Source: a virus | DNA length: 64,000 bases | Direction: 5' to 3' (one strand) | Virus record (IMG/VR): IMGVR_UViG_3300034103_000446 | Span: 39,063 to 103,062 of that record | Shown: positions 28,401-61,327 of the stretch, one piece after another | Layout: each line of letters opens with the position of its first letter | Numbering within the stretch: the stretch's first letter is position 1 | Translations under genes and position numbers: made by a program | The notes under the pieces: generated by a model | What the model was told of the DNA's origin: nothing | Databases searched by the model: none | The model's input: only the letters and a program-made list of their open reading frames with translations

Positions 28401-31400
28401 TAACATATATGTTAGTCAAACCCCTTGCAACAGTGTCACCTGCATTATAGTTAGTCATTACGATTGCGTTAACATCGACTTGTAATCCGTCAATTCCTGA
28501 AGTACGTTCACCAATCAATGCCGCAACACCTCTAGTAATCAAGTTGCCATTTGTACCAGATACATTTGGATACTGCTCGGATGTTTCGTATAGGGTAAAT
28601 AATTGACCATTGACTTGACCTGGACTTACTGGCAGACTAACGTTGACTACCATATCACTTCCAGTAGCTGTAATTAATGCAACAGTGTCTTTCTGACTGG
28701 TCAACAACGCCGAAGTATTACTTGCAACAGAAACATCAGACAGTGCCACTGCTGGCCCGTTGATAGTAGTAGATACTTGGAATGTACTTGGGCTCACAAT
28801 AGAGGCAACATAGTATGTTGTTCCGGACACTAGGTTACCAAAAGTAGAAGTTTTGGTACCTGCAATTATCATAGTGTTAAAAATTATCTGCTCGTTGACT
28901 GACAACCTAGTAGTGTCGCCATCGATCACGATTGTATCAGTAGAAGCTACTGTAGCAGTAACATTAAATGTCTGTGGATTTTGTGTCTCAGACATAGTAA
29001 ATGTTTGATCGTCAACTACTGTTGTTACATAATAAACTTCATTTTCTATTATTCCACCAAACACTCCGTTTTGAACAAGATTAGAATCAGTACCAGTGAA
29101 GAATATAGGTAAGTTGATATAGAATCCAGCAGTACCACCTGTACCAGTGACATTTAACGGAACAGTTAACTTGTTAGTGACTGCTTGAGTTGCAGTTACA
29201 TTGAGTATTCCAGGATAGTTTACTGTAATTACAGCAGTATCAATTACTTCGCCAACAAAACACTCTAGTCCGGCCGGACCTACTGTCCAGTTAGACAACG
29301 ATAGCATTGGGCTACCAGTAGGATCATTTGATAATGTGAAATCAGTTTGGTTTACGATGCTGTTTACATAGTAAACTTGTTCATTTACTAACCCACTAGT
29401 ACCAATATCACCTGTAAACTTGATAGGCATACCAATGTAGAAACCATTAGTACCACCTGATGCGTTTGGATTACCGGAACCGTCGTCTTGCAACGCCAAC
29501 CTAACTACATCGTTTGAAGCATAGGTGCTGTGTACATAACGAATGAATGAACTATATGTTAATACTCGGTCATTTCTTAAATCAGTTATTTCAAACGCCA
29601 CGCCTTGAGCACTTGCTAAAATATCTGCTATTGGAGGCTGTGTGCTTTGTAAAGTTATAGATGAACTAGCGACGGACTCACTGTTAGAATATGTACCTGC
29701 ATAGTATGCACCGTAATATCTACCTGACAACCATTCAATAACTTGTGAGTTGTATGTTGTTCTGTCAAAGCGTAGTACTATGTCGTTTTCTCTTATTGGC
29801 AATGCACTAGTAATTGCGCTTGCTCTTGCACCTAAATTAATACTATGGCTTGAACCTGTACCAGCATTGAATAGTGGAAGTCTGTCATGGTCATTGATGC
29901 AGTTTGCATAATTATCGTAGAATCCAACAACAACTGAAGGTACTGTTTCTAACACGTTAATGTAATACCATTGGTTGTTTTCTAACCCACCAATTGCAGT
30001 ACTGTCAGCACCTACTTTGTACTGAATTAAATCACCTGTTTGTAATAGAGGAGCATAAACTTGAACTGTATTCGAAAATGTGTTTACATCTGTACTTGAG
30101 AATGGAACAACAATCGCAGTATCAATAATTATCTTTGGCAACACTGCATATCCTTGGCCTGGATCGACTACATCGACTCGTAGTACACTATCTAAGTTCA
30201 TAACTGCGGTTAACACTGCAGGTCTTGTAGGAGTTGGATATAATATTGGGTCTATGTATGCTGTAACCTTAGGAGGTTCAGTATATCCCCTGCCACCGTC
30301 TAATAACAAGACAGCCGGCAAGTTCATAGAGATATGAGCACCGGGAATGTGTTCAGAAATAGTAGTTCCATTAACACCACGAGTCAAACCAGTAATAACA
30401 TTTAATGCACGATCCACTGATGAGTATCCAATTTGTTCAGTTCCAATCGTGATTATGCCGTTGATAGGGAAACCCTGAGCATTATCTACCACAAATGATT
30501 TAGTGTTCAAAGAGATATACGATGCTAATGTAGTCATCTGTGCTTCTGGTTCGCCGGTTAATGCTAAACCATAGTTTTCAAACCACTGTGAGTATTCTTG
30601 TTCTTCCCAGATAGGATTATCAGGAGTAAACTGATTTACTCCGTTAGAATTAGCATAAACTAATTGAGGTGTTATAAACTGATTTTGTGATCTGTCATAT
30701 TTTGCAGGTAAGTCAAAGTCAGTAATGTTTCCGCCATAAATTTCTTCTCCTGTATACTTGAATAAGAATTCTTTAATAACCACATGATATGGTTTTATTT
30801 CATTCATATAACCAGCTAAGAAGTCTTGATTGTCTGATTGGAATACTTCAATTGGTCGCAGTTCACGAATGGTATGTGCAACATCAATAAATGATGTTTT
30901 GTTTAACCATGGCAAGTAATTTTGACTTTCTGTTGTCTCACTTTGAATATATTCGAATAGTAGAATCAAACTGCGGTTTCTATATACTAGAAGGTCATCA
31001 GTATAAATCTGTTCGTTCAATGCACGAACAATCTTGCGTGTTTCTTCGCTTGGATACACATCATAGGTGTCAGTGTCAAAGAAGTTATCACCGTAACCTA
31101 AACGAACAGATTCATAATCCCACAATGAGGACTTGAATCTAATAGTGCCGTTTTCTAAACCAATACGTCTCCAGATTCCGTTAGATTCATATATGTATGT
31201 TTCTGTTTGACCGCTGCGGTTAGTAGAAACAGTTACAATAGTACCAACTGCAACTGATAGTGTAGACAAATCTGCATAGATAGGAACCTGTAATGCTGAT
31301 TTAGTGTTGTCATCATATCCTGTTGCCCACCAGTTAACAAATTCCCAATAATCAGCGGTATCATAGAATTCTCCAGTAGATGTCAAGAAAGATGACTGTC

Positions 31401-34400
31401 TAATTTCTGTAATTGGGAATTGATATATTACACTATTTGCATACTGTAGATAATTCTTTAACGCGGTGAATCTGTCTAAGAAGAAACTCTGACGAGGTCT
31501 TGCTAGTATACCGGTTTGAACTGCTTTAGGTAAGTAGGGATTAGGAACAATTGCTCCAGTTTCATCTACACCGCACAAGCTGTCTAATAATCTATCATAC
31601 AAACTATCAGGGATACCACTAGCGGTAGACGGGACACCTGGTAAGAAGTCACTAGGGAATCCTGAACGAACTAAATTGAATTGTTCATGTGATACATCAT
31701 CATTGGTGCCTGTCGCAAATCCAATGTGCAATACACTGTCATTTGCATTGATGTAATCACCTGAGTTGTACAATCCATATACGCTTGGTAATATTGGACT
31801 AAAGTAACTGATGCCAGATGCCTTTGGATTTTCAATGTAAGACGCAATTATAGAATCTGCCAGAGTCTTGTCATTATCAGTGAATATAGTATTAGTGTTT
31901 CTAGCCCAGAAGTAATATACGGGTGACAATGCACCGGATGCGTTTATTACATACTGAATAGAATACGAATCAACATTTAATGGTGTGCCTGGTCCTCTGT
32001 ACTCTCCTGGCAACACTGTGCTTGCTACCCAACTGCAAACTGCAACATCGCTACCCGGGAACAATGTACCCCAATATTGGCTGTTATACGCTACATCATC
32101 ATTTTGATGATAGTTTACATAACGCATGTTCTTTGTGTTCAGCCAAACTAAACCAACATGGTCTGCTCCCCATACTAATCCACCGGTTACTGTTTCTCCA
32201 TTGTTATAATATGCAGGATCAACGTTAGAAACAATGTCAATGTTTTCTCTTGCCGCCCCTAAAATTTTACCTTGCAATGGATCAATGTAATCCATGTTAA
32301 TCAGTGTCTCATTCGATTCGGCACTGAATAGTTGAATGTTGAATATTTTATTAATATCTACTATAGGAGCAGAATATCTGTATAGTGCCCAATCTTTTAC
32401 CCCGGTGCTGTTATTATAAACTGTTGCTGAACCGGCGTACTCGCTACCAGTAGTGTCACCTACATCGCCGGGTGTACCTACAATTACTCCGTAATTATTG
32501 AAATCTAGTGCAGTACCGTAACGTGGTTGGTTACTAGTAGTGATATCAGTATCCTGATCGTATGAATTAAACGGAGTGTATACTAAGTTAGGTGAGTTGA
32601 CGCTTTGTGCATAAACAAACTTACCTGGATTCAACAAGCTTTCATTATATTGAGTAATGTAGTCAAACATGTACACCGCACCAAAGTTTGGTGATTCATC
32701 TATCCAAGAAGTAGTATTGTTATCAAACAGAGTATCGTTATCTTGATTTTCATCATCAATAAAGTCAAAAGTAGTTGCAGAATATCTAGTGCCAACTGGA
32801 GCGCTAGCTACAAAACTACCGTATTCATTGAACTTTACTATCGTACCAAATTGTGTTGGGCCACCGGTATGTGGGCAATTAATTTCTTGAGTCATGTCAA
32901 AGACGACAATACCTAATTCACCCAATGTAACAGTATCAGTTACACCTAAACATAATTTCTGATTAACAGGAGCTAAATTATTATCGATCAAGAAGATTAC
33001 TAATTTGCCATCGATGGATGTTGCAGCTATATTGGTTATATTAGATGAATTAATAGCATTGGCTACTACCTCAGCGTTGCCTGCAGGTATAAATGTTAGG
33101 AATCCATTTATCAAAATCTTTCTAGTAGTGGTAACGTTACAATCATTCACGCCTACGTACATACCATACGCCGCACCTGGATCAGTGTAGCGATACACTA
33201 CACCCTCAGTAGTCTGAGTGCTTAATTGAAATGGTGCACCAATTAATATTTCACTAGCAGTTGTGTTGGTTGTAACGCTTATACCAAACTGTGCACCGGT
33301 TTGAGGAGTTTCACTAGGGGCAATATCTTGAAATAGAGTAATGTCGTTTCCATTTACATTTACTATATCACCTGCATTCAATGAATCAGTATAAATCAAA
33401 GTATCATCAATTACTGCGTAATTGTTATCTTGAACCAATGTACCATTCCTAGAAACAAACAAGGTGTCGTTCTGTAGGTAAGCACTGGCATTTGACATTC
33501 CGGATACGGTTGATAAATCAATATCGGTTGTGCTTTCTCTGGTTTCCTTGATAGTTATATTAGAGCCTGCAATAGTAGAGACATAATAAACCTTTGATGT
33601 TGTTATGTCCGTGCCAGCGAAGCCTGCTCCAATAAACATGATAGGTTTATCTAAGTCTGTGCTTACATTCAGTCCAATTGATAATGTAATAACGTCACCG
33701 GCGCTATTAGTATCAGTAACTGTATATTGAGTTGCTGCCGGAGTCCACGCTAATTGTAATGTCTGTGTGCTTGGTGCTATGGTGTTGTATTGAATTTCTA
33801 TGTTTTGGCATAGTCGTTGGAATACATAAGTGTGTCCCCACTTATCAATCGTACCTTCATCTTTGTAGGGAGCTCCAATAATTATTTTGTTGCTATTATA
33901 TTCTGTAGCAATAGAATATCCAAATCTGTCACCTGGATTAGTCAATCCTAATGCATCACCGTCAATTGTAGCAGCAGTAGTATATGTTATCTTTGTTGCA
34001 ACACCTGTACCAGTACCCAACCCTGACGCAATAAAAATAGTACCAACATCATTAGATGTTGCACCTATTGCAGTAAAGTCAGTAGTACCAATAGTGTTGA
34101 TTATATATGTTTGACTAGTCTCAAAGTTTCCAGCAGTAGTTAATATATTTGAACGTTGGTAAACATGTACTGTATCATTATCAATATCAGATATGTAAAT
34201 CCAAGCTTGGTTCTTTGCTATCGCAATTGCAGTTCCCCAAGTTGTTGCACCGGCTGCGTAAGGTATAGTCTGAACCAAAACTAGATCATCACTGGTTGTA
34301 GTAGCTTGTAATTGATATAGCTTAACACTTCTAGATGCTCCGGTTGTTTCTGCAATAGCATATAGATCACCTGCATAACTAATAGTACTACCAAATGTAG

Positions 34401-37400
34401 CATTTCCTGTTATAGTTTGCACAAGTTCATATGCATCGTTCAATTCATTAAAGGTATAGCGATATACTTGGCCTGCGTCTGCATCACTAATCATGTAACC
34501 CAATTGACTACTAATAGCAACTGCACTTCCCAAAGATTGAGAAGACGCTTTAGTTACTTGATTCTCTAATGTGTAATTGATATTTTTTCTATACACACCC
34601 CATGATCCAGATGCATCAGTGTCTACCCATACCGTGTTCTTTCTGAATTCTGCTTCTATTAGAGGCAAATCTGCTATTTCTGATGGAGTTGCAACACGCT
34701 GAGAAGTAAACTTCATAGCAACACCTTGACCAGTAATGGTCTTGATACTAGTGTCTAATACTCTGTTTACTAATACTCTATTTTGATCGATAACAATGGT
34801 TGCTAGATAGTAGCCGTCGATCACTGGATCAAAATTTACAATAGCAAATGGTTGATATTGTTTTAAATTATGAGGTTTGTTGAATGTGATAGTAACTGTT
34901 TCATTCAAGTTGTTTCTTGCACTAATCACTTGACCCATAGATACAGGAGTATAGACTTGCCACTGTTCTAAGTAGTTAGCTAGCCATACATAATCACGCA
35001 CAAAGAATTCTTGTATAGGAACGATAGAACCACTCTTGTCTACTGCTACTCCCAATTGAGAATAGAAGAAGGCAGACATTTTAACATCGTTGTAATTAAC
35101 ATAGCCTGCATTAGGGAACACAGGACTGATGCTTTCTACGCTAGTTGTGGGAAGGACATTTACATTAGATACTGCTCTACCGTAATTAAACAATGAGTAT
35201 AACGGAACTTCTTGTTGTACACCTTGGTTGTATATTCCCTGTGTTAATCCAACTACTGCAGGATTACCGGTCATCGAGTTTTCATTGACTCTGAATTCTA
35301 TGAAGTTGTTGTTTAATACACCACCAAACTCACCTGCCTTAATAGCCCAATTTTCAAAAATTTCGTAGTCAATACCACCTTGTGGCAATGTAGCACCTTT
35401 GAATGCGCTAGCTGCGTTCAATGTACCTTTGTTCTTAATCATGTTCTTGTATACGTTGACTTGCGTAATGTCTGTCAAGTCTGCAAGAGCCATATAATCA
35501 CGCGGACGGTATCCAATCAGACTGAAGCTTAGTAAGTCAGCATCTTTTTCCAAGTTAGCTTGATCGACATCATAGTACAACGAACTTTCATAACTACGTG
35601 TGCTTGAGTTAGGTAACAATCCCTTTTGGATACTATCATAATCAGTGCGCTTCCAATCTTCTTCTTTGAAAAGTTCACTGGCCTGAATTACTTTAGTGGC
35701 TACCCAATATTTGTTTTTATATTTGACAATTTCGCCCTTAGTGTATTTGATTGTGCGACTCCATTCTTTGATGTTATCTTGATTGTAAATGAAGCCGCTT
35801 GCGTTGACTGTACCATTCCAATCTGCACTCTTAGTACCACGCAATGCGATACGATTTTGACGCAAGCCAGTGGTCAAGTTGTAAATGATATCCCCAAACA
35901 ATGTAATATTATCAAATACGATACCGTGTTCAAAATTACTTAGGTTGAACTGACCGTATGATAATACATCACCTGCATTCAATGCTGCCACACTGAAGTT
36001 TGTGCCTTCACGAACCACAGACATGTCATTCAATTGAATAGGATATAGATTCTGATTCAATATGAAGTTTGATTGTTGCAATGTCAATGGTTGAACAATG
36101 TTACTATCTTTGTCGATAGTTAGTTTCTTAGCTGAAGGGTTCAATGTAACAATGCTACCAGGTGCCCAGCCTGTCTGCGACCAATACATGAATTCTGCAA
36201 TCATTTGACCCCAATTAATTTCGAGTTCATTTTCCATGTCATCAAACTTCATACCTAAACTAGTTAAGTATGCACCATAGTCTGCTAAGAACTGTGCAAC
36301 TTCTTGTACAGTGTAGTACGTAGTGTTATAAGGTATAATTTGTTCTGTTGCGTAGTGGTCAGGTGTTACTCGTACAGATAAATCTTCTATTTCAATAGTA
36401 TCATACTTGCCGCCAAATTTTGGCTTCAATGTTTTGAAGTATGCAAATGTTTGTGAGTTTCCGTATACAGTGTATCCACCTGTGGATGCTTTCTGTATTA
36501 TGACGCCTGAATAAATTATTCTATTGAATGGTTGGTTGTCATAAAGCAATACAGAATAACTTTCGTCAGGAATTAACAAACTAGCGTTGATGCTGTTTGG
36601 TGTTCCTTTTTCAACATAAAACTTTAGTAAGGTCTTATCACTGAATCCAGCTAGTCGATACACTAGACGAACATCAGTGTTGTTTATCATTTCGGTTATG
36701 TTTGCTGTCGCTGGAATTCCTATCTGTTTCTCGTAGTCAACCACCCAGTTAATGTAACTGGTAACCGGAGTTCCTGTGCCATACACATCAATATCACTCA
36801 TTCTCAAATGACTGCGATTATTTACTAGGTACTGATTAAATTCTTCGTTGTATTTGTAGTTGTCTACATTAACTCCCAAATTAAAGAATGCTGCAGGCTT
36901 TGTCAATGCTAATAATCTCATCAAATCGAATGGATATGAACTACTACGTCTATAACTGAATTCAACGGGCGCACCATCACCAACTTTCCAATCACGTTGG
37001 AATAATTTTTGATTGTAACTACCTACAACAGAATCAATCGGAGGTAGTAAATTACCTGCACTGTTAACTGGGATTATTTCTAATAGTCCAGGTCTAACTG
37101 CTTGAGGAATTACAACTGGATCTCCGTTGTTCCAATCAATTCCTTCTGCTAAATCAGTCCATAGAACCAAGTTATCACTAGTGTAGGGTGCTGGACCATA
37201 TCTATTTGTCCACCATGTAGGCATTTCAGTAAAGCCTAACATCTCCCATGGCGTAGTGTTTGGTGTAGTAGTGTCGTAGAAGTATTGATATATACCTCTC
37301 CAATATCCTTGACTAATCACACCCTTATCTATCGCATTACCACTTTGGAAGTAATTCCATGTAAAGGTGTTTCCTGCATTATAGAATTGAGTTTTATAAT

Positions 37401-40400
37401 TCAAACGATTTTGGCCAACCCAATTCAAGAAACTGTTGCTGTAAATTTCTAACCATTCAGCATATGAATAATCAGTATCACGGAAAAAGCCAGGAACAAC
37501 TTCGTACTCTTTAATAGGAATGATATTGCTTAATTTTAAGTTATTGTAAACACGCAATTCAAATTCTAGAGATACCTGATCCCTAAAGTCAGACAACAGT
37601 CCAGTAATAGTATTATATTCACCGTATAATTTAGTGTATGAACCGTCATGCCCTCTAATGAAATATGTAGGAGTATTGTAATTACTGTCTAGTATTACTT
37701 CAGGAATGTAAGACGGATACAATCCCAACTTAGTTGGAGTGTTGGGGACATATGAACCATATGTCTGATTGTACTCTTTAACGGTTATACTGTCACCAGG
37801 CTGTAAGTCTAAGCTAACAGTCAATGACGGTGCTGTTGTGCTAATAGTATAGTCTTGACCTTTAACCAATTGTTGAGTTGATGTTAACCCTGAAACAGTG
37901 CGAGTCAAATAAACTAACACCCCGTAGTAATTTGCAGTAGCATAATCATACACTCTAGACAAAGGATAAATGCTTACATCTAAGCTATTTGCAAATGAAT
38001 ATGTGTTAGATATATATGCTGCCTTACTAGGCAACATATCAGACCAAAAGAACGACTGACTATCAGTTTTTGATGCAGTCATCTGATCCAATGCATCATC
38101 TAACATAGTAGCAGGATCATATCTTTGCTCATAGTCACTATTTTGAATAGTGTATGCCAGTAAGTTTTTGAATTTTACATATTCTCTGTCATTAAACATT
38201 AACGAATTGAACAAGTTGTGTTCTTGTTTGCGTAAGAATGCACCTGGCAATATTAAGCTTGCACTGTTTTGAATTATCTTGTCACCCCATGGAACTAAGT
38301 TTCCAAGATCGCGGAAGTTATTAGATCCAAATACGTCACCCGTAGTATTAGGATTATTAAAGAACATACTCTGATACTGACCACGAATGTCACCAATGTT
38401 AGCGACAGTTATGTCAGCGTTTAACGGGTTGTTGTTCAAGTTAATAGGAATCGAATAATATGCAGTTTTACTTACTTGGTCACTTAACAATAAGATTTGA
38501 ACAACTGTTTCGATTAACGGATTTGTTGCTAAAACTACAGTAGTAGTGTCTGGGCCCACAGTTATAGTATACTCACCGTGATTAACAATTACGTTGTTTA
38601 CATAAACTTCGATTGTAGGCCATGCAATGCTGTCTGCGCTAGACTTAGCGATATCACACATGTATGAGGCAGCAGGATTTAATGGATCATAATTAAATTC
38701 AAAAATTTGATACTGAACACTAGGCGCAACTGCTGTTTGCCAACCCAATTGACGTTGATACTCTATTCTGTTATTGTATTGAAATACATAACCAGTATTA
38801 ACCTTTTGGGTGATAGGATCAGTTCCACTCACATAGTCAAAAGTATCTGCATTTAAGGAGACATCAAAGCTAATATCACCCACATTGTCTATAGCACTAT
38901 ATCTAATAGGAAATCCTAAAATAGAATCATCAATGCCGGCTCCTAGACCATAAGCAAATAATTTACAACCAATAAATGACGTACCAACATATACATCTGA
39001 GTCACCAAAGCTAATGCCATTGGTGTCAAATATATCAAATAGAGGTGGCTGATTCACTGTAGTTTTTTGCTGTCCTTCAATCCAATCTAAACCATTGTAC
39101 CAAAATTCTTTTCCTTGATTGAAGTAACCTCTTAGTGCAACAGTCTGTTGATCAGTGTGAACAATACCATCATTGACTTCTGTTAATGTAATCACCGGTA
39201 TTGAAGATCCGTTTACTACAGAAAATCTAGATACATAAATTTTATTCTTTACAGTCGAATCTGCGTCTTGTGTGAAAATAATTCTAGAGCCTTCAAACAA
39301 TGCATAATTGTCGTTAGTAGTGTCTGTGCTAACAAATGATGAATCAGTAGTTGTAGGTATGTATCCAGAAGAACCTTCATCCCAGCCCACTGTAATTGTT
39401 AATGTAGTAGTTCCACTGATTGACAATACTTGAGTGTTTCTTGGCAACTGATTAGTTGAATCAGTTATATATTGTCCAACAGTTATTGTTCCATTCACAT
39501 CGACTGAATCAATAGTCAATATGGTACTTTGGGGAGTCCATTCGAATCCGTAAGTTCCTGGTCCAATATTAGAATTAGGCCCTATTACATCACCGCCTTT
39601 AGTACTTGATATTTTAAATTCGGTACTAGAAACAATCTCTGCTACAAAGTAAGTAGCACCGTTAACTATTCCTAAACCAGGTGTGATGTTATCGAATACA
39701 ATTAAATCATCAACTCTAAAACCAGTAGTGCCTGTTGAGGTAGTAAACACATCAGTGCTTGCAGATGCATCAGTTAATACTCTGGTCGCAATGTAATCAG
39801 TGCTTGTGATGGTACCAGTGTATGCAGTATAAACTTCTACATCAGGGTAATAATTCTGTTGACCGGCCACTTTAGTTAACGCATCTGTGGTTCTAGTATC
39901 AATAAAGTCTACTGGATTTTTACCTTCAGATCCAGAGTTAAACATCTTTATGTTAGGATAAAATTCAATGATAGGTCTTTTTGCTTTATATTCCGATGTT
40001 GCATACAGTGTTGCAAGATTTGGATTATTATTGTATATTGCAGTTGCATTTATAACATCTATATGAAACCAGCGGTTACTACGTGACCATGCATTTTTGT
40101 CAATGCTATTACGAGCAATAGTAATGTAATCAGGTGTCACTGGAATATACGAATTACCTTCCCATGCAGCAGAGTCCCAACCTAAAACATCCCATGGCAC
40201 GTATGTGCTTGCAGTAAAACTTTCAGGTGCTATGAAATTTTCTACCGGTAGTAATTCAATTGCAGTACCTACACCTTCTACATAGTATTCACCTGCAAGA
40301 TAGCTGGTAGGTATAACATCACCTTGGAAAACAACTTTTAGGCCATTGGTAAACACTACTCCGTTAGTAGAAGTAAACTGAGCTTGTCCCAAGATATCAG

Positions 40401-41955
40401 TTTCTACATTCAATGTATTTGTAGTATTACTTTCAATCAGGCGAATGATACCAACTTTGTTAGAAGAGGTTCCGTCTTGGTAGTACAGTGTATCTAGAGG
40501 AGCACTAATGTATGGTATTAATAAAATAATTCCAGAAGTGTTTCGATAAAAGTTTCTAGCTCCCCACTCAGTGCCAAAAGTAGCAGTAATTTTTTCGTTA
40601 ACTGGAATTTCAGATGATTGGACTAAACGAATAACTTGTTCTGAAGGATCACCTAACAATTGAATAGTGTAGAAATATTCATTTACATTTGTGTAGTAAC
40701 CTTGTTCGTATTGACCTTGATTGATAACACCGGTCATTGTTCCAGATTCAGTAGATAGTGCAAGTACAGAACCATTGGGTGTGGTAGATACAGTGAACTG
40801 AGTAGAATTTATAACTGACTCTACATAATAAATTGTGTTTGGTAAGGTAGCAGAGTATGGTGCTAATCCACCAAAAGGGTTACCATTAAAAATGATTGCA
40901 TTTCCTACGACTAGTTCACTAGTGCTATTACATGTGATAGCATAAGTAAATCCATTCGTGTTAGTAACACTGATAGTTTTTAATTCAGTTAAATCATTGT
41001 TCTCATCGTACGGAGTAAAGTCAAAGAAGTTTGATACATATCCTACTTCGTTTGGAATTCCAGTATTATAGAACATTACACGCAGGCCGTCAAGCGAGGT
41101 TATACCATCTATACCGTTAATTAAATCAGCTACTCTAACACCATTAATTTGTGAAAAGGGTAAATTTGAGACTAGGCTTACTGTATTGTTACCTGAAAAA
41201 TTATATTCGTCTTGTGCGTCTTTAGGAGGAACAGTGAATGTGACGATACCTTGCGTTGCGCCGTTGTTGTTCACCCCTAATATTTCACGAGTTTGCAAAT
41301 TGGGTTGAGTTGGACTAAATCCTGTTACGCCTGGTTCACCTTGAATCCAGAATTGAGAGTCTTGATTTACGGCGAATGAATATGTACCACCTCGCAATAA
41401 AGTTAGTGTGGGGTTTGTGCTACCTAAGTTGTCCGCAGAAGTTAATGGAACAATGTTGTAACCATTAGGTAAGTCATATACTACGTAATCATTACTGTAA
41501 AAAACAGTTTCACTTGTTACCGTGACATTTTCAGGACCTTCTGGAATCCAGTAGTACTGATTAAAGTTAATAATCTTATCTAAATTTGTGAAAGAGTCCC
41601 AAGAATAAAATTCACTGTTGAACAATCTATTATTATTGTTCGTCACACCACCTTCAAGTTTAAGTGCATCAATAATACCTGGATAACTTATAAAGTCTTT
41701 TGCAACTGATTCATTTGTTTTTGTAAAAACTACACCTGGATCTAATTGATAATCTCGGCGAATCTTGGTAGGTTCAGTTACATAGTAATCCTTAGCATTA
41801 ATACCGTAACCAAACTTAGTTCCTATATAACCCTCGATTTTTTTCGTCTCTGGTTGCGCTACTATTTGGTCTAGTGTCGCCGCTAAAAACTGAGCGTTGG
41901 TTTTTGTTTGGAAAATGTCCGGTAAAAAATTTAGTGTTCTTATTCTTGATGCCAT
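22480..41955 (-). CDS. Giant modular baseplate/structural protein (6491 aa)
   Basis: Uninterrupted 19.5-kb ORF directly after the gp6-like wedge gene. Contains roughly 15-17 copies of a beta-rich 'I.F.G..GG....T.YYV......F.VS' module, FG-GAP-like repeats and Asp-box (S.DG..W) repeats. Confidence 0.8.
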   Translation of the reverse strand: MASRIRTLNFLPDIFQTKTNAQFLAATLDQIVAQPETKKIEGYIGTKFGYGINAKDYYVTEPTKIRRDYQLDPGVVFTKTNESVAKDFISYPGIIDALKLEGGVTNNNNRLFNSEFYSWDSFTNLDKIINFNQYYWIPEGPENVTVTSETVFYSNDYVVYDLPNGYNIVPLTSADNLGSTNPTLTLLRGGTYSFAVNQDSQFWIQGEPGVTGFSPTQPNLQTREILGVNNNGATQGIVTFTVPPKDAQDEYNFSGNNTVSLVSNLPFSQINGVRVADLINGIDGITSLDGLRVMFYNTGIPNEVGYVSNFFDFTPYDENNDLTELKTISVTNTNGFTYAITCNSTSELVVGNAIIFNGNPFGGLAPYSATLPNTIYYVESVINSTQFTVSTTPNGSVLALSTESGTMTGVINQGQYEQGYYTNVNEYFYTIQLLGDPSEQVIRLVQSSEIPVNEKITATFGTEWGARNFYRNTSGIILLIPYISAPLDTLYYQDGTSSNKVGIIRLIESNTTNTLNVETDILGQAQFTSTNGVVFTNGLKVVFQGDVIPTSYLAGEYYVEGVGTAIELLPVENFIAPESFTASTYVPWDVLGWDSAAWEGNSYIPVTPDYITIARNSIDKNAWSRSNRWFHIDVINATAIYNNNPNLATLYATSEYKAKRPIIEFYPNIKMFNSGSEGKNPVDFIDTRTTDALTKVAGQQNYYPDVEVYTAYTGTITSTDYIATRVLTDASASTDVFTTSTGTTGFRVDDLIVFDNITPGLGIVNGATYFVAEIVSSTEFKISSTKGGDVIGPNSNIGPGTYGFEWTPQSTILTIDSVDVNGTITVGQYITDSTNQLPRNTQVLSISGTTTLTITVGWDEGSSGYIPTTTDSSFVSTDTTNDNYALFEGSRIIFTQDADSTVKNKIYVSRFSVVNGSSIPVITLTEVNDGIVHTDQQTVALRGYFNQGKEFWYNGLDWIEGQQKTTVNQPPLFDIFDTNGISFGDSDVYVGTSFIGCKLFAYGLGAGIDDSILGFPIRYSAIDNVGDISFDVSLNADTFDYVSGTDPITQKVNTGYVFQYNNRIEYQRQLGWQTAVAPSVQYQIFEFNYDPLNPAASYMCDIAKSSADSIAWPTIEVYVNNVIVNHGEYTITVGPDTTTVVLATNPLIETVVQILLLSDQVSKTAYYSIPINLNNNPLNADITVANIGDIRGQYQSMFFNNPNTTGDVFGSNNFRDLGNLVPWGDKIIQNSASLILPGAFLRKQEHNLFNSLMFNDREYVKFKNLLAYTIQNSDYEQRYDPATMLDDALDQMTASKTDSQSFFWSDMLPSKAAYISNTYSFANSLDVSIYPLSRVYDYATANYYGVLVYLTRTVSGLTSTQQLVKGQDYTISTTAPSLTVSLDLQPGDSITVKEYNQTYGSYVPNTPTKLGLYPSYIPEVILDSNYNTPTYFIRGHDGSYTKLYGEYNTITGLLSDFRDQVSLEFELRVYNNLKLSNIIPIKEYEVVPGFFRDTDYSYAEWLEIYSNSFLNWVGQNRLNYKTQFYNAGNTFTWNYFQSGNAIDKGVISQGYWRGIYQYFYDTTTPNTTPWEMLGFTEMPTWWTNRYGPAPYTSDNLVLWTDLAEGIDWNNGDPVVIPQAVRPGLLEIIPVNSAGNLLPPIDSVVGSYNQKLFQRDWKVGDGAPVEFSYRRSSSYPFDLMRLLALTKPAAFFNLGVNVDNYKYNEEFNQYLVNNRSHLRMSDIDVYGTGTPVTSYINWVVDYEKQIGIPATANITEMINNTDVRLVYRLAGFSDKTLLKFYVEKGTPNSINASLLIPDESYSVLLYDNQPFNRIIYSGVIIQKASTGGYTVYGNSQTFAYFKTLKPKFGGKYDTIEIEDLSVRVTPDHYATEQIIPYNTTYYTVQEVAQFLADYGAYLTSLGMKFDDMENELEINWGQMIAEFMYWSQTGWAPGSIVTLNPSAKKLTIDKDSNIVQPLTLQQSNFILNQNLYPIQLNDMSVVREGTNFSVAALNAGDVLSYGQFNLSNFEHGIVFDNITLFGDIIYNLTTGLRQNRIALRGTKSADWNGTVNASGFIYNQDNIKEWSRTIKYTKGEIVKYKNKYWVATKVIQASELFKEEDWKRTDYDSIQKGLLPNSSTRSYESSLYYDVDQANLEKDADLLSFSLIGYRPRDYMALADLTDITQVNVYKNMIKNKGTLNAASAFKGATLPQGGIDYEIFENWAIKAGEFGGVLNNNFIEFRVNENSMTGNPAVVGLTQGIYNQGVQQEVPLYSLFNYGRAVSNVNVLPTTSVESISPVFPNAGYVNYNDVKMSAFFYSQLGVAVDKSGSIVPIQEFFVRDYVWLANYLEQWQVYTPVSMGQVISARNNLNETVTITFNKPHNLKQYQPFAIVNFDPVIDGYYLATIVIDQNRVLVNRVLDTSIKTITGQGVAMKFTSQRVATPSEIADLPLIEAEFRKNTVWVDTDASGSWGVYRKNINYTLENQVTKASSQSLGSAVAISSQLGYMISDADAGQVYRYTFNELNDAYELVQTITGNATFGSTISYAGDLYAIAETTGASRSVKLYQLQATTTSDDLVLVQTIPYAAGATTWGTAIAIAKNQAWIYISDIDNDTVHVYQRSNILTTAGNFETSQTYIINTIGTTDFTAIGATSNDVGTIFIASGLGTGTGVATKITYTTAATIDGDALGLTNPGDRFGYSIATEYNSNKIIIGAPYKDEGTIDKWGHTYVFQRLCQNIEIQYNTIAPSTQTLQLAWTPAATQYTVTDTNSAGDVITLSIGLNVSTDLDKPIMFIGAGFAGTDITTSKVYYVSTIAGSNITIKETRESTTDIDLSTVSGMSNASAYLQNDTLFVSRNGTLVQDNNYAVIDDTLIYTDSLNAGDIVNVNGNDITLFQDIAPSETPQTGAQFGISVTTNTTASEILIGAPFQLSTQTTEGVVYRYTDPGAAYGMYVGVNDCNVTTTRKILINGFLTFIPAGNAEVVANAINSSNITNIAATSIDGKLVIFLIDNNLAPVNQKLCLGVTDTVTLGELGIVVFDMTQEINCPHTGGPTQFGTIVKFNEYGSFVASAPVGTRYSATTFDFIDDENQDNDTLFDNNTTSWIDESPNFGAVYMFDYITQYNESLLNPGKFVYAQSVNSPNLVYTPFNSYDQDTDITTSNQPRYGTALDFNNYGVIVGTPGDVGDTTGSEYAGSATVYNNSTGVKDWALYRYSAPIVDINKIFNIQLFSAESNETLINMDYIDPLQGKILGAARENIDIVSNVDPAYYNNGETVTGGLVWGADHVGLVWLNTKNMRYVNYHQNDDVAYNSQYWGTLFPGSDVAVCSWVASTVLPGEYRGPGTPLNVDSYSIQYVINASGALSPVYYFWARNTNTIFTDNDKTLADSIIASYIENPKASGISYFSPILPSVYGLYNSGDYINANDSVLHIGFATGTNDDVSHEQFNLVRSGFPSDFLPGVPSTASGIPDSLYDRLLDSLCGVDETGAIVPNPYLPKAVQTGILARPRQSFFLDRFTALKNYLQYANSVIYQFPITEIRQSSFLTSTGEFYDTADYWEFVNWWATGYDDNTKSALQVPIYADLSTLSVAVGTIVTVSTNRSGQTETYIYESNGIWRRIGLENGTIRFKSSLWDYESVRLGYGDNFFDTDTYDVYPSEETRKIVRALNEQIYTDDLLVYRNRSLILLFEYIQSETTESQNYLPWLNKTSFIDVAHTIRELRPIEVFQSDNQDFLAGYMNEIKPYHVVIKEFLFKYTGEEIYGGNITDFDLPAKYDRSQNQFITPQLVYANSNGVNQFTPDNPIWEEQEYSQWFENYGLALTGEPEAQMTTLASYISLNTKSFVVDNAQGFPINGIITIGTEQIGYSSVDRALNVITGLTRGVNGTTISEHIPGAHISMNLPAVLLLDGGRGYTEPPKVTAYIDPILYPTPTRPAVLTAVMNLDSVLRVDVVDPGQGYAVLPKIIIDTAIVVPFSSTDVNTFSNTVQVYAPLLQTGDLIQYKVGADSTAIGGLENNQWYYINVLETVPSVVVGFYDNYANCINDHDRLPLFNAGTGSSHSINLGARASAITSALPIRENDIVLRFDRTTYNSQVIEWLSGRYYGAYYAGTYSNSESVASSSITLQSTQPPIADILASAQGVAFEITDLRNDRVLTYSSFIRYVHSTYASNDVVRLALQDDGSGNPNASGGTNGFYIGMPIKFTGDIGTSGLVNEQVYYVNSIVNQTDFTLSNDPTGSPMLSLSNWTVGPAGLECFVGEVIDTAVITVNYPGILNVTATQAVTNKLTVPLNVTGTGGTAGFYINLPIFFTGTDSNLVQNGVFGGIIENEVYYVTTVVDDQTFTMSETQNPQTFNVTATVASTDTIVIDGDTTRLSVNEQIIFNTMIIAGTKTSTFGNLVSGTTYYVASIVSPSTFQVSTTINGPAVALSDVSVASNTSALLTSQKDTVALITATGSDMVVNVSLPVSPGQVNGQLFTLYETSEQYPNVSGTNGNLITRGVAALIGERTSGIDGLQVDVNAIVMTNYNAGDTVARGLTNIYVNMPIEISEDLFYTNALVPGTTYYVVDKGTIEIEVTNTSSSTNELTCDTTEMLFADMPILFSGSGMGGAEIDVEYWVKKVVSDTRFTITNTPGGLELTLTTASGLMTGTGLPYIKVAENLGDPAEYPGDSQQSASISAANPAVITVVNAPEDGTTVIFRNGTVPAGISLGTTYYVRNATSTTFNVSLTATGALIDTSAGSLSSSTMVITTETTVDQTPLTVPEFDVSYILGGYRVLISNAGTGYAVDNTIVIPGNVIGGTTPLNDLTLTVNAIDDDGEITSTICSGIAAGVVSQYYLKVISPTEFELYQNALMTVPVSGLALPYVGITETTVTSLDSGTDELTLADASGFDLNDAVVFTGNLTPTLGAITESQTYYITFILGNVITVSAEPGGADINITTSIASNFTIAKSGSFALLPEPFIFNQSIVKYNNRVYVCVISNNDKEFVFGKWELLTSGDRRLNAMDRVFGYYDPTDNMPGKDLSQLFEGVIYPNSTYLGNAFAPDDQYPIDTVLQDQAFYPTAVDIHAIVWDSVRYLAAADTPDYSSVLSSLTGEEWEIQKLANTPINTTDMIYAGGYYIMTSNNPATPIFRSADGITWTTNGYFTPYGSVPYDTTTYDFTALSISALNLNSVGYRNNLWIAVGDGIVSSDDTYIWRQRFTFSDPQLTNILYGVNGIDVSAFTGFIAVGKGQQLDYSTGVGVTIDVNLIITSTDGISWNQIPAVSSKGFYGVTHNGTSIVTVGEDGVIYISNNGANWLGVNEVTVISSNDASNELNVTSTAGFVVGNQVEFSESFNVFTAGTPYFVVNIISSTQLQLSTTFGGLPVTLTVDDPTTTTYMFAPRTTSLVDVKYANGAYVAVGDNGLIKVSTDGYTWAPHTSGTSEDLNGVTFNEDTSEWIVVGDNNTILISTDNGINWTSSSVFAPQATFYDVQGAEFTYGYGPEELVPGVVTDNITLTVATRPGTNWDETIYAHVGYEVVSVEYTPESGTQTTYSFDIGNLYDIQTPAQIAVYIIGGTTGLSTAVYQTLDYTINWINYTITLNTPLTFSPVADKLRIDVYEVGNGNQLVKASTKTDPIRTNTSTGWNEIYVNCNYSGQIYDGSGVIRPDTNPVDVEATETDSTNNSILCANVEDFVLNMPITFQGNVFGGIQEDTTYYVKTISYVTNRITVSTTINVGTGTAGPTLALTDDTGSMNVIIKVGYGEVWTAPIIYHNGDKLLIGTTSTVTRTKASNNAVTTNTTGGMVVGERIVFSDTMFGGILLPQTTYYVQSIIDTNEFTVAATSGGPVITLTNATGGAEFITNDYAFGIADNGISASIIFASNSYDNATDYISYTLFGETTPQQYGYTIPEVQVIEADGSSTYELDNYVGDDNSNNAIVEVNGLRLINTTDYTIDDNTNEITFTSAPTSGDTIAVTTFNNTERQYLNTQYGITGVTVANIIDINNSIVPFSAITNCTASNGTTEVITCVSTTGFVPGQTIQFKGATSFGDIEIDGTVYYVRAVLSPTTFTIQDENGTIIDLSTGTGLIVAYVGGQQAVRVTTGTAHNLTSGDLVRIDGTLGSVQLNNNTYYVHVINSIQVDLYLDQPYSSGLTAVNSPVTAISSYVSGGYIWENNSYVIETLEVTATTNDPILGNYLTVSSTVPLIIGTPIVFTGTVYGGVAADTTYYVKELISATEFSISATRNGSDLVLSTDTGSMFVTQWEQDNVDRLWVTVNGYRVPSSELKLNANNEISILTVISTLDEVTITSMMPSATPNEEVFLINVNQSGAGVAYRANTQTRTWLTEPLSNTDTVMYVDDVTRLTDVVTQSETVPAAVDGYFYIGLDADKRLISNVTVYNATTGQTIAGSNYEVVIVNLSPVLKITSGAYITVGNQLTITVLEGNLLYINGEQIKFSSVDLANNTISGLQRGTNGTGGQFFIPQYSEVYGLLSNNRMSIADYQETWNSDVYNTVDGDPLQISVTESATFLRGDVN

Positions 41956-58472: not shown

Positions 58473-58492
58473 TTTAATAGGTGTATTTTTTG

Positions 58493-58539
58493 CACATAAA
58501 TGATAAATACAATGTAAGAGTTGAAAGGACATTTATGTG
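58493..58539 (+). promoter_or_regulatory. Start-codon-sequestering hairpin with embedded late promoter
   Basis: CACATAAATG (58493-58502) pairs perfectly with CATTTATGTG (58530-58539), which contains ATG 58535; GATAAATA at 58502-58509. Confidence 0.7.
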
Positions 58540-59170
58540 GTATGTTTACGTATTATACGATCCAAGAAATAACAAGCCCTTTTATGTAGGGAAGGGAAAA
58601 AAGTATAGAATGTCAGCGACTATTAATACCAAGCAAGGCGGTAATCCTCTAAAGAAAAAGTTTTTAGCCGAGATTAAACTTGCCGGATTGAAGCCAAAAG
58701 TAGAGATAATAGCTGAATACACACACGAGTCTGATGCATTGAGTCACGAAAAAACATTAGTGGCCACTTACGGCAGAATCATTAAGGGAGATGGTATCTT
58801 AACTAATTATTCAGATGGTGGTGATACTAGCAATACCGGGTGGCTTCCTTCAGAAACGACACGCAAGATTTGGTCTGAACAACGCGCCGGAGTAAAACAG
58901 ACGCAAGAACACATTCAAAAACGAGTTACAAAAAATCTAGGTAAGACTAGATCACCTGAACAAAAACGCAATTGTTTACTAGCCAGTATTCGCAAGACTA
59001 ATCCCGAACTTAAAGTTTCTATCATTGAATCTTTAGAGTCTATCCCTTATCACCATGGATTGTATCGAAGGCTCGCTGAAAAATTCAACTGTCATCATGA
59101 ACTGATAAGTAGAATACACAAAGATATTAATTTATACAAAGAGGCATTAGATGGGTGGATCAAAAAGTAA
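58535..59170 (+). CDS. Free-standing GIY-YIG endonuclease with NUMOD3-like repeats
   Basis: YVYVLYDPRNNKPFYVGKG..R, E..L, LTNYSDGGD, then TRKIWSE..G/EHIQK..GKTRSPEQK. Start moved to ATG 58535 (AAGGA RBS). Confidence 0.8.
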   Translation: MWYVYVLYDPRNNKPFYVGKGKKYRMSATINTKQGGNPLKKKFLAEIKLAGLKPKVEIIAEYTHESDALSHEKTLVATYGRIIKGDGILTNYSDGGDTSNTGWLPSETTRKIWSEQRAGVKQTQEHIQKRVTKNLGKTRSPEQKRNCLLASIRKTNPELKVSIIESLESIPYHHGLYRRLAEKFNCHHELISRIHKDINLYKEALDGWIKK

Positions 59171-59732
59171 AAACAAAGGCAGTTCGTTTGAGCGGGAAAT
59201 CGCTACTTATTTGTCTAAACTATACAATGATTCTTTTGTTAGAGCTCCTCATAGCGGAGCCTATATAGGTGGATCAAATGCCTATCGAAAGGAATATCTA
59301 AGTGAGAACCAAGCCAAATCTTATAAGGGGGATATAATTCCACCTGATTCATGGACACGTTTCAATGCAGAAGCGAAGTCTTACGCTGATTTCCCCTTTC
59401 ACTTAGTACTTGCAGGAGAGTGCAAGCAACTAAATAGTTGGCTAGATCAACTCATGGCAGTAGCAGAACCAAACGATGTAAACATCTTGTTTATGAAGTT
59501 TAACCGCAAGGGTAAATTTGTTTGTGTTCCGTCAAAGCTTACATGGATCACTGATCAATTTCTATACTATACTTCTGACAAGTATAATGATTGGATTCTC
59601 ATTGAGTTCGATCATTTTTGGAAATACAACAAAGATTTATTCAAAACATACGCATCAGGCGCAGAAACAACAGACACCAAGTCATCAATCGAAAATCTTA
59701 AAACCAAAGATATCCTCTCTACCTTAAAATAA
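59151..59732 (+). CDS. Holliday junction resolvase (PD-(D/E)xK, Hjc-like)
   Basis: SKNKGSSFEREIA, SGA, GDI, EAK. Confidence 0.8.
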   Translation: MGGSKSKNKGSSFEREIATYLSKLYNDSFVRAPHSGAYIGGSNAYRKEYLSENQAKSYKGDIIPPDSWTRFNAEAKSYADFPFHLVLAGECKQLNSWLDQLMAVAEPNDVNILFMKFNRKGKFVCVPSKLTWITDQFLYYTSDKYNDWILIEFDHFWKYNKDLFKTYASGAETTDTKSSIENLKTKDILSTLK

Positions 59733-59760
59733 AAAACACTTTAGTCTTTAAATTTGTTTG

Positions 59761-60211
59761 GTCTAGGTACCTAGACTCTCCTTGAGATTGTACAGATTGT
59801 GCTGTGCCGTCAGATTCTGGAGTAGCAGAAATTAATTTTTCTGGATATACCGAGAAGGCAATCGACAAAGCGAACCTTCAACAAGTCTATAGCAACTTTA
59901 TCTTTAAGCTATAGAATGTGCGTTGCGAAGGCGTCAATTGAAAGATCATTGATAGACCTAACTACAGTCCCATAAACTTTACAGAGCAACCGGTAGCGTA
60001 AGAGTAGCAACAAATAGCTGACATTACGGGGAAAAGATAACAATGGATGACGGGCAAGTAAACCCTTTACCAATGGTGGTGCTTTTTAGCACTACCATGG
60101 CTTCAAGTGCAAGTACTAATGTTATGTTATCCATGATAGAATAAACAGTAATTAAAGTTAAACAGAATAAGAACGAGCGTAGCGAAGTTCTTAGATGTCC
60201 GAAGGACATCT
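59761..60211 (+). ncRNA. Candidate large structured non-coding element (ncRNA or single-stranded origin)
   Basis: The largest ORF-free gap in the window, holding at least 8 stems plus two long-range complementarities; G-U pairs favour the plus strand. Family not recognised. Confidence 0.5.
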
Positions 60212-60214
60212 TTA
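60193..60214 (+). terminator. Possible terminator hairpin between convergent transcription units
   Basis: AGATGTCC-GAA-GGACATCT followed by only a short T run. Confidence 0.35.
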
Positions 60215-60272
60215 TAAGAGAAACAAGATGTAAAGAATAAGCCGATAATTGACTAAATGAACAGTTACGGGT

Positions 60273-60503
60273 TTAGAAGAAGGGTAATCCTGACTTCTTA
60301 GTTACTTCTAAGTTACTATCTATAAGTTCTTTGAGTTGCTCTCGTTCGGTGGTGGACATATTCAGAATATCTTCATATGTCGCACCTCCCCTCATATACC
60401 ATGCCATGGACATGGCACTTTTCTTTATGTCATTGACGGCTGCTTCATAGCCTTCAATTAGCTTCTGTATGCCTTTGGGATCAAGGCGGAGAAGCGTTAG
60501 GCG
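60273..60503 (-). CDS. gp51: gp51-like baseplate hub assembly domain, probably reached by -1 frameshift from the upstream gene
   Basis: 76 sense codons RLTLLRLDPKGIQKLIEGYEAAVNDIKKSAMSMAWYMRGGATYEDILNMSTTEREQLKELIDSNLEVTKKSGLPFF*; first ATG is at 60413; not in the ORF track. Confidence 0.7.
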   Translation of the reverse strand, partial: RLTLLRLDPKGIQKLIEGYEAAVNDIKKSAMSMAWYMRGGATYEDILNMSTTEREQLKELIDSNLEVTKKSGLPFF

Positions 60504-61327
60504 AAAAAATCTGATGTATTCAATGTAAATGGTTGCTCATACTCATTGGCACAATGCACACACTTAATTCTCAATGGTTTAATTTCTGTTTGAGATTTCA
60601 AGTTTGCATTATGGTCACGCAACTCAACATACATATTCTTATCACAGTTATTCAAGAAATCTAAGATGAATTCTTTGTTATCTACTCTGGATGTAGGTGT
60701 CTCTATGTATTCAATCGCACCAGTCAATAGTTTAATTGTTAATTGTGTTACTTTTTTCAAAGCCTCTTGACCACGATTCTTACGAATTTCTTCATCGGGT
60801 TCGTTTTCCAACATGATAAACACTCGTTGAATTTCGATCTGACCAATGCTGGCCTCGTTCATTTCTTTGTATGACAGTGGCCTAAACTTGATTTTCAAGT
60901 CATTGACTTCTAGTTCAGTATCATAGTTACCGGGTCTCATCTGACTTAACATGTTGATGAGGTTTATACCATATTTTCCAATGTCCTTACATGCAGGGCA
61001 TTCGGATTCGATCTCCATATCATTTCCACCACCTGCAGCACGAATACCGATCAATATAGCATCTAAGTCCATACTGTTGATAGCCCACGGGTCTTTGATG
61101 TTTGGTACACAGCTTTTCATTAATTCTGCCATAGCTGTACCATTGTATAGTGCGTCTGGTGTTTTTGTAGTAATCTCATCTATCGCTGTCATAGGAAAGA
61201 TCGGGATCTCGCCGTTGTCGGGCATGTCTATTACTCCCTGCGGATAATATTTACCACCGCTAGGTAATTTTACATATACTGATGGACGACGGAAATACTG
61301 TTTCAGCGGGTTGTTATCTAATGCCAT
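60497..61327 (-). CDS. gp26: Baseplate hub assembly protein (T4 gp26-like)
   Basis: YVKLPSGG, PMTAIDE, IRAA, CPAC and CVHC zinc pairs, KFRPLSY, terminal DFFA. Confidence 0.8.
   Translation of the reverse strand: MALDNNPLKQYFRRPSVYVKLPSGGKYYPQGVIDMPDNGEIPIFPMTAIDEITTKTPDALYNGTAMAELMKSCVPNIKDPWAINSMDLDAILIGIRAAGGGNDMEIESECPACKDIGKYGINLINMLSQMRPGNYDTELEVNDLKIKFRPLSYKEMNEASIGQIEIQRVFIMLENEPDEEIRKNRGQEALKKVTQLTIKLLTGAIEYIETPTSRVDNKEFILDFLNNCDKNMYVELRDHNANLKSQTEIKPLRIKCVHCANEYEQPFTLNTSDFFA
60503..60509 (-). other. Candidate -1 ribosomal frameshift heptamer T_TTT_TTC
   Basis: X_XXY_YYZ in the correct phase, one codon before the gp26-like stop; the -1 frame opens directly into the gp51-like sequence. 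Confidence 0.7.

Follow-up and report, generated by a model that had tools for sequence, protein, structure and literature searches.

A large structured noncoding RNA with two pseudoknots between the resolvase and baseplate hub genes of lake jumbo phages

What occupies a long gap free of open reading frames (ORFs) between two convergent genes in an otherwise packed stretch of viral DNA? The stretch analyzed here, which we call the window, is the right-hand 64 kb (64,000 nt) of the 103-kb IMG/VR virus record IMGVR_UViG_3300034103_000446, whose completeness is estimated at 29%. The phage sequence comes from lake-water metagenomes, and its gene content is of the T4-like jumbo phage type, including Mre11- and Rad50-like nucleases, a resolvase, a baseplate hub protein, and an ORF of 6491 amino acids (aa). 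The gap in question spans 540 nt between the stop codon of the resolvase gene (59732, plus strand) and that of a convergent small ORF (60273, minus strand), and it contains no ORF of 90 aa or more. A first-pass annotation made from the letters alone had proposed that the gap holds either a novel, multi-domain large phage noncoding RNA downstream of the recombination genes or a replication origin.

We are nearly certain that positions 59750-60215 of the plus strand are the gene for a large structured noncoding RNA, and not a spacer, a coding sequence or a chance fold. Compensatory changes among relatives exceed both the shuffled and the slid controls, as detailed below. The plus strand folds with a minimum free energy of -138.8 kcal/mol (z = -3.4), a value that none of 100 dinucleotide shuffles reached, while the minus strand gives z = -2.1. 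The alignment pairs contain 552 GU/UG cells against 111 AC/CA cells, and this excess identifies the plus strand as the RNA strand, in agreement with the G-U asymmetry noticed at first reading. No coding signal was detected: with reassigned stop codons (TAG as glutamine, TGA as tryptophan, TAA as glutamine) no frame conserved in relatives opens in the gap, the stop-free runs equal those of shuffles under four genetic codes, and the substitutions among relatives lack a three-base periodicity. The proposal of a novel multi-domain RNA is supported by conservation, covariation, strand asymmetry, the lack of an Rfam match and the lack of a coding signal.

Relatives were gathered by searching IMG/VR with both flanking proteins, which yielded 144 loci. 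DNA homologous to the gap is present in 129 of them, mostly at 68-96% identity; for the flanking proteins, identity in most of these relatives is only 33-68%. A later motif scan located the core motif in 223 loci representing 150 distinct contexts. Long blocks of the RNA are nearly invariant, and the median share of the window's bases that is retained amounts to 67% for the RNA core, 36% for the coding DNA of the resolvase and 42% for that of the hub. The order of resolvase (plus), RNA (plus), and small ORF and hub (minus) is kept in 125 of 126 testable contexts, and this fixed position rules out a mobile element. Exactly one copy was found in each of six large relatives, three of which are complete genomes (352, 364 and 524 kb). 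The RNA is under strong purifying selection, single-copy and fixed in position.

All carriers of the RNA known so far belong to one clade of uncultured, T4-like jumbo phages from lakes, whose genomes measure about 250-520 kb. The nearest cultured phages, judged by the proteins named above, are the PA5oct-like Pseudomonas jumbo phages, Atu_ph07, Phosso and SCTP-2, at only about 30-45% aa identity. A covariance model of the core found nothing convincing in PA5oct and Phosso, either in the resolvase-adjacent gaps or in the whole genomes, where the best score (17.6 bits) falls in the hub coding region. The same model gave no match beside the hub gene or elsewhere in the records of two distant relatives, L129 (48% hub identity; searched also with the model filters off) and L133 (40%). 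A DNA search of 50,697 phage records returned no match to the RNA. In 185,579 prokaryotic genomes, one DNA-pattern scan gave 0 matches and a second gave 18; the 18 are close to the chance level by our own estimate, and the core model rejects all of them. By these searches, the RNA appears to be restricted to phages.

The secondary structure was derived as an RNAalifold consensus of 80 sequences, whose pairs are kept through many compensatory changes. For the central three-way junction we built a covariance model, R1, of 147 positions from 67 distinct sequences. R1 scores 146.7 bits on the window and matches the RNA in 164 of 179 loci searched, the other 15 being incomplete loci or the most distant relatives. 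In the R1-made alignment, 98.5% of the cells of the three-way junction are paired and 215 are double-changed, compared with 52 ± 6 in shuffles, and only 29-39% of the cells pair when the partners are slid. A second alignment, of positions 59842-60125 with 63 diverse relatives (64 sequences), was made with plain MAFFT and fitted to no structure. Here 73 pairs, including both pseudoknots, are kept in 93.8% of cells with 632 double changes against 188 ± 12 in shuffles, and slid partners pair in 34-45%. Mutual information detected both pseudoknots independently, and pair counts confirm them. Folding energy and covariation had both been named by the first-pass annotation as ways to check its proposal, and both speak for the RNA.

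The core of the RNA is about 360 nt long and is built from three hairpin domains, a three-way junction and two pseudoknots (PK1 and PK2); an A/U-rich linker and two tail hairpins follow it. In the pseudoknots, the loop of hairpin H5 and the invariant UCCC of H6 pair with the strand that comes directly after H7. The elements from 5' to 3' are as follows.

59749-59758, plus: conserved 5' leader (AAAUUUGUU); the motif AA(A/C)AAUU(U/A)GUU is kept just before H1 in relatives
59754-59758, plus: tentative 5' strand of the closing helix P1 (UUGUU), pairing with (G)GCAA
59760-59777, plus: hairpin H1, variable in sequence, with GC, AU, GU, UA and CG pair types per position
59778-59822, plus: domain D2, a long hairpin with internal loops; inner helix 59786-59793 with 59804-59811
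59826-59843, plus: hairpin H3; its six pairs all covary, with up to six pair types, and are formed in 74-79 of 80 sequences
59848-59995, plus: core three-way junction, closed by 59848-59852 with 59991-59995 and recognized by R1
59854-59879, plus: H4, an arm of the junction
59881-59919, plus: H5, an arm of the junction whose loop carries a PK1 strand
59898-59903, plus: 5' strand of PK1 in the H5 loop, pairing with 60035-60040
59922-59990, plus: H6, an arm of the junction with a variable tip and the near-invariant strand ACUACAGUCCCAUAAACUUUACAG
59968-59971, plus: 5' strand of PK2 (UCCC) in the invariant strand of H6, pairing with GGGA at 60029-60032
59997-60028, plus: hairpin H7; compensatory changes at 10 of its 11 pairs, 93.2% of cells paired
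60029-60040, plus: 3' strands of PK2 (60029-60032) and then PK1 (60035-60040), back to back, from mutual information and pair counts
60044-60072, plus: small domain H7b, UGG/CCA around GGG/CCC, drawn by eye; a CAUGGCAA-type loop is conserved in relatives
60074-60097, plus: hairpin H8, 11 bp, almost invariant in sequence; 94.2% of cells paired, few double changes
60100-60111, plus: short GCU..AGC-type hairpin, followed by GCAA (60108-60111), tentatively the 3' strand of P1
60112-60167, plus: A/U-rich linker, variable in length and sequence, of low conservation
60168-60192, plus: tail hairpin H9, a stem with a tandem G-A internal loop and a 2-bp tip capped by GNA or GNRA
60193-60211, plus: tail hairpin H10, capped by GAA or a GNRA-type loop, paired in 79-80 of 80 sequences

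All six pairs of PK1 are kept. Five of them covary (UA 39/CG 20; UA 42/CG 11/UG 11; GC 37/AU 24; UA 53/CG 5/AU 3; CG 42/UA 18), and the sixth is UA 61/UG 3. PK2 is paired in 96.6% of cells, with double changes at all four pairs (UA 31/CG 12; CG 47/UA 5; CG 61/UA 3; CG 60/UA 2). In D2, the outer strands CUCC/GGAG and GA/UC are invariant, so that the outer pairs never vary, and the inner pairs covary (59787/59810: UA 18, AU 17, CG 14; 59791/59806: UG 42, CG 24, UA 13). The GGG/CCC of H7b becomes GGU/ACC in some relatives, as read by eye from the alignments. The pairing of the P1 5' strand with (G)GCAA is consistent and varies on one side only (UG, CG, UA). Helix 12, in the stretch 60100-60111, is paired in 92.7% of cells, also with one-sided changes only. 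Both the stem and the tip of H9 covary (60174/60187: CG 40, UA 26; 60177/60184: GC 38, AU 26), and H10 carries double changes as well (AU 51/UA 28; CG 36/AU 36). The H10 stem is conserved and covarying; in the consensus scan it is not reported as a terminator. The UUUAU that follows it in the window is not a conserved U tract, and the tail further downstream is variable.

Most of the local stems read from the window alone proved to be real and are kept with compensatory changes in relatives (59761-59776; 59790-59793 with 59804-59807; 59826-59843; 59886-59915; 59997-60028; 60168-60193; 60193-60211). The stem at 60073-60098 also holds and is nearly invariant, and TCAAT/ATTGA falls within the variable tip of one helix. 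The suspicion that the RNA is pseudoknotted was right, although PK1 and PK2 are not the long-range pairings that had been suggested. Of these, CCGTCA (59807) with TGACGG (60048) holds at no more than 2 of its 6 positions, and GATAACA (60036) with TGTTATC (60125) is paired in 10-43% of sequences; positions 60035-60040 pair with the H5 loop (59898-59903) instead.

We compared the RNA with known families using Rfam 15. No model matches the window at its gathering score, and over 59500-60600 there is no match of note at E <= 10, only small nucleolar and long noncoding RNA noise. The earlier failure to assign the element to a known family is therefore borne out. No tRNA or transfer-messenger RNA (tmRNA) gene was found in the 64-kb window by ARAGORN or Rfam, and the ROOL model has no match. 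As far as the accessible parts of the literature searched go, we found no description of this RNA. Judged by these searches, it is a class without counterpart among Rfam families. Two specific candidates were tried and rejected. A tmRNA is excluded, as neither ARAGORN nor Rfam finds a tRNA-like domain or tag frame and a relative encodes a separate genuine tmRNA. For a group I intron, there is no model match, the upstream resolvase ORF is complete, and downstream there is only a convergent gene and no plus-strand frame.

Metatranscriptome coverage, another check named at first reading, shows contigs on the RNA from two runs of one study, although such contigs cannot show the strand, ends or level of the transcript. 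One contig of 312 nt lies wholly inside the RNA at 98% identity, and another bridges the 3' end of the resolvase gene into the RNA. RNA-library contigs of the cores of relatives reach a depth of 17-22. Parts of a 3-kb stretch are left uncovered by RNA-library contigs (e.g., 58700-59600), which is no sign of silence. These contigs weakly suggest that the RNA is expressed; run X18, whose label as RNA is a guess, was left out of account.

The likely promoter context was analyzed by motif scans. The T4 late-promoter octamer TATAAATA has no copy in the window against 7.5 expected. The motif (G)ATAAATA stands shortly upstream of many gene starts on both strands and is probably the late-promoter -10 element of this phage. 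Its copies in the window are the following.

52993, 54012 and 58503, plus: (G)ATAAATA
61387, 52989, 45847, 45356, 22476, 21691 and 2344, minus: (G)ATAAATA

The nearest plus-strand late-promoter-like motif upstream of the RNA is GATAAATA at 58502, before the small, possibly inserted gene that precedes the resolvase. As this copy lies upstream, late transcription that passes through the resolvase and continues into the RNA is plausible, and the RNA is probably carried on the resolvase transcript. In relatives, ATAAA(A/T) occurs just upstream of the resolvase start in most contexts and directly before the RNA in about 40%; ATAAATA is not consistently positioned before the RNA.

What might such an RNA do? 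Taken as a whole, the explanation that we moderately favour is a gene for a large structured noncoding RNA that is expressed late and acts in trans through a precise three-dimensional core. Transcription would occur late, with the RNA as the 3' part of a resolvase transcript that in the window would start at the GATAAATA motif. The RNA would then accumulate as a stable molecule acting in trans, and its precise core would serve late in infection as the RNA subunit of a ribonucleoprotein (RNP) or as a ribozyme. A precise three-dimensional core is the most likely reading because many unpaired junction bases are near-invariant though the flanking proteins are only 33-68% identical. For a stable late trans-acting RNA of this kind, RNP core or ribozyme, acting on a conserved partner, we see about even chances. 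Candidate partners would be found in DNA processing or packaging, or in translation and tRNA functions, a field of heavy investment by these phages.

A narrower version, in which the RNA is the subunit of a new phage RNP or a new class of ribozyme working late on a universally conserved substrate, is a tentative proposal that may well fail. The substrate could be, for example, branched or concatemeric DNA, handled alongside the adjacent resolvase, or the phage-encoded tRNA, tmRNA and ribosome machinery, through maturation or hijacking. The invariant junction organized by the pseudoknots would then be the active or binding centre. Any one specific biochemical role, taken singly, is unlikely at best. 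Antisense targets of the RNA in the window number three 12-mers against 3.5 expected, which is not above chance.

Several points weigh against a late trans-acting RNA with a precise core. The expression evidence consists of assembled contigs of one study, in which DNA carry-over is possible. A scan found no sigma-70-type promoter or canonical terminator at the RNA boundaries, and the 5' and 3' ends are placed only where conservation stops. P1 and the CUCC/GGAG helix are backed by consistency only, with no double changes. The invariant junctions could reflect a DNA-level or cis-acting role and not catalysis or protein binding. Finally, no cultured phage was found to carry the RNA (PA5oct and Phosso are without it), and published transcriptomes offer no check.

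Among the alternatives, the one that survives best is a self-assembling 'ornate' RNA of the GOLLD/ROOL kind, which by analogy might form a multimeric RNA-only cage or scaffold during infection; we consider it unlikely. The RNA is indeed phage-carried, large and pseudoknotted, and its GNRA-type loops could contact other molecules. The same lineage also carries true GOLLD in two of its three complete genomes, and GOLLD and ROOL are homo-oligomeric cages according to a cryo-electron microscopy preprint (bioRxiv 10.1101/2024.12.08.627333). The GOLLD model (RF02032) has no match at our locus, but it scores 206 bits in G001 (complete, 352 kb) and 203 bits in G005 (complete, 364 kb), so the search works on this lineage; it finds no GOLLD in the third complete relative (524 kb). 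The GOLLD copy of G001 sits inside a tRNA cluster. This genome also encodes a permuted beta-type tmRNA (tag ANDSQFALAA), an adjoining tRNA with anticodon CUA, 34 further tRNAs and a freshwater-2 motif (companion RNAs of G001 at L300:5415-5881, minus; L289:3279-3786, plus; and L292:5400-5478, plus; for G005, L303). Because the complete relatives carry a separate tmRNA and, in two of three, GOLLD, the RNA described here is neither of those. It has no similarity to GOLLD or ROOL, no tRNA gene adjoins it, unlike the GOLLD of G001, and its core of about 360 nt is much smaller. Nor was a family-wide palindromic kissing loop seen, the H1 palindrome of the window not being kept in relatives. The 'lake-derived' GOLLD RNAs belong at least partly to this jumbo-phage lineage, and the tmRNA type hints at a betaproteobacterial host.

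It is rather improbable that the element acts only in cis, as a 3' untranslated region that stabilizes or insulates the convergent late transcripts by blocking exonucleases or preventing collisions, with no role in trans. In favour of this reading, the element lies exactly between convergent genes and directly after the resolvase stop, a contig bridges the resolvase 3' end into the RNA, and the tail ends in two stable hairpins. However, end protection needs far less than this core of about 360 nt, which has two covarying pseudoknots and long single strands that are invariant, the sequence is conserved well above the genes that it would serve, and no conserved U tract follows H10.

A replication origin or structured primer RNA, comparable to ColE1 RNA II or the T4 R-loop origins, has very little left to recommend it. 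The RNA adjoins recombination genes (Mre11, Rad50, resolvase), and we take it to be similar in size to the RNA II preprimer. However, the TAGCGA in the H9 loop, which had been likened to the CS-6 element of plasmid single-strand origins, is not conserved, most relatives having a different loop there (among them GAACGAAGUGAG), and an ssoA-type origin was rejected. The cumulative GC-skew minimum of G001 lies about 6 kb from the RNA and, by mapped coordinates, would fall at a divergent late-promoter region. In a genome with direct terminal repeats at its ends, the RNA lies 70 kb away from the closer end, and neither GC skew nor the distance to genome ends links it to an origin or a pac site. Moreover, the G-U-specific covariation points to RNA structure and not to duplex DNA. 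With the motif not conserved and the locus neither at a GC-skew extremum nor near the genome ends, the origin or primer alternative of the first-pass annotation finds no support.

A highly diverged known family missed by the models (RNase P RNA, tmRNA or a group I intron) has next to no chance of being the answer, since, for all the two pseudoknots, the need of 34 phage tRNAs and a tmRNA for 5' processing, and an ACAGAG..CCGGUA stretch that presumably bears a superficial resemblance to the CR-V/P4 strand of RNase P, there is not even a weak Rfam match at E <= 10, the CCGGU belongs to a nested closing helix, relatives carry a separate genuine tmRNA, and a complete ORF on one side and a convergent gene on the other leave no exons.

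The genes that flank the RNA in the window are listed here.

59151-59732, plus: upstream neighbour, PD-(D/E)xK 'resolvase' gene (PF24608, Pfam E = 1.5e-26)
60273-60413, minus: small ORF downstream of the hub gene, with its stop at 60273
60273-60509, minus: suggested -1 frameshift extension of the hub gene, in a frame open to 60273
60497-61327, minus: downstream convergent neighbour, T4-type baseplate hub gene (PF12322, E = 1.5e-13)

The resolvase ORF is complete, spanning positions 1-160 of the 164 of the Pfam profile. The hub ORF ends in ...GAT TTT TTC GCC TAA, with the heptamer T_TTT_TTC in phase, and past its stop the -1 frame has no stop codon for about 76 further codons, to 60273 (window 60273-60520, minus strand). 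This arrangement suggests a programmed -1 frameshift extension of the hub gene. The product of the small ORF is kept beside the hub gene in at least one relative (L211, 70% identity). Between the resolvase and the Rad50-like gene there is an ORF of 229 aa (58481-59170, plus strand) that matches no Pfam family; inside its 5' end are the GATAAATA motif (58502) and an ATG (58536) that could serve as a later start. The ORF may be an insertion in this phage, because most relatives have a promoter-like ATAAA(A/T) directly before the resolvase instead. The single 6491-aa ORF (22480-41955, minus strand) makes up 30% of the window. In the cultured phages, an ORF-poor or tiny-ORF stretch of about 1-1.5 kb lies beside the resolvase gene of PA5oct (L145:4452-5964) and Phosso (L146:4954-5967).

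New classes of large, elaborately folded RNA are rare, and past ones were ribozymes, RNP cores or, most recently, RNA-only cages. A widespread group of giant freshwater phages has the RNA described here as a core gene in single copy, conserved above the neighbouring proteins and accompanied in the genome by GOLLD, tmRNA and a complete set of tRNAs. More than 150 distinct natural sequences are available, together with two pseudoknots and a secondary structure backed by covariation, which makes the RNA a defined target for structural and biochemical work. Its role, once solved, could uncover a step of jumbo-phage replication, assembly or host takeover that is based on RNA. 'Lake-derived' ornate RNAs can also be placed in a specific phage lineage that carries more than one.

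Four known systems invite comparison. The IMG/VR structured-RNA survey of Fremin et al. 2023 (PMC10690425) mined 8,495 unnamed candidates of 29-151 nt by covariation, as given in its accessible part. Fragments of our RNA may be among these candidates; compared by description only, that part of the survey describes no large pseudoknotted RNA behind a resolvase gene. In PA5oct, which is among the closest cultured relatives by the flanking proteins, ncRNA001-004 are ORF-free transcribed regions of 236-619 nt defined by RNA-seq (PMC7318152). They resemble our RNA in being long ORF-free regions of a jumbo phage, but their positions in the genome are different (two lie in the terminal repeat), no conserved structure has been reported for them, and the core model finds nothing in PA5oct.

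Bacterial RNase P RNA is similar in size and likewise has two pseudoknots and invariant unpaired core nucleotides, and phages with many tRNAs and a tmRNA carry substrates that need RNase P. The RNase P models (types A, B and variants), however, give no match even at E <= 10. The CCGGU strand of our RNA (59991-59995) pairs with 59848-59852 in a nested closing helix and not in the long-range P4 (CR-I/CR-V) pseudoknot, and its pseudoknots use other strands. To our knowledge, the RNA has no equivalents of RNase P CR-I, CR-II or CR-III.

The closest likeness in kind is to GOLLD (RF02032) and ROOL, which are also large, multi-domain, pseudoknotted and phage-carried RNAs found by comparative genomics, and GOLLD co-occurs in the same lake jumbo-phage lineage. 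There is no similarity between them and our RNA in sequence or by covariance model, and the core described here is smaller (about 360 nt). GOLLD is found next to tRNA genes or in their midst and often contains a tRNA itself, whereas this RNA is fixed between the resolvase and hub genes, away from tRNA genes. Its co-existence with GOLLD in the same lineage shows that it is a separate gene.

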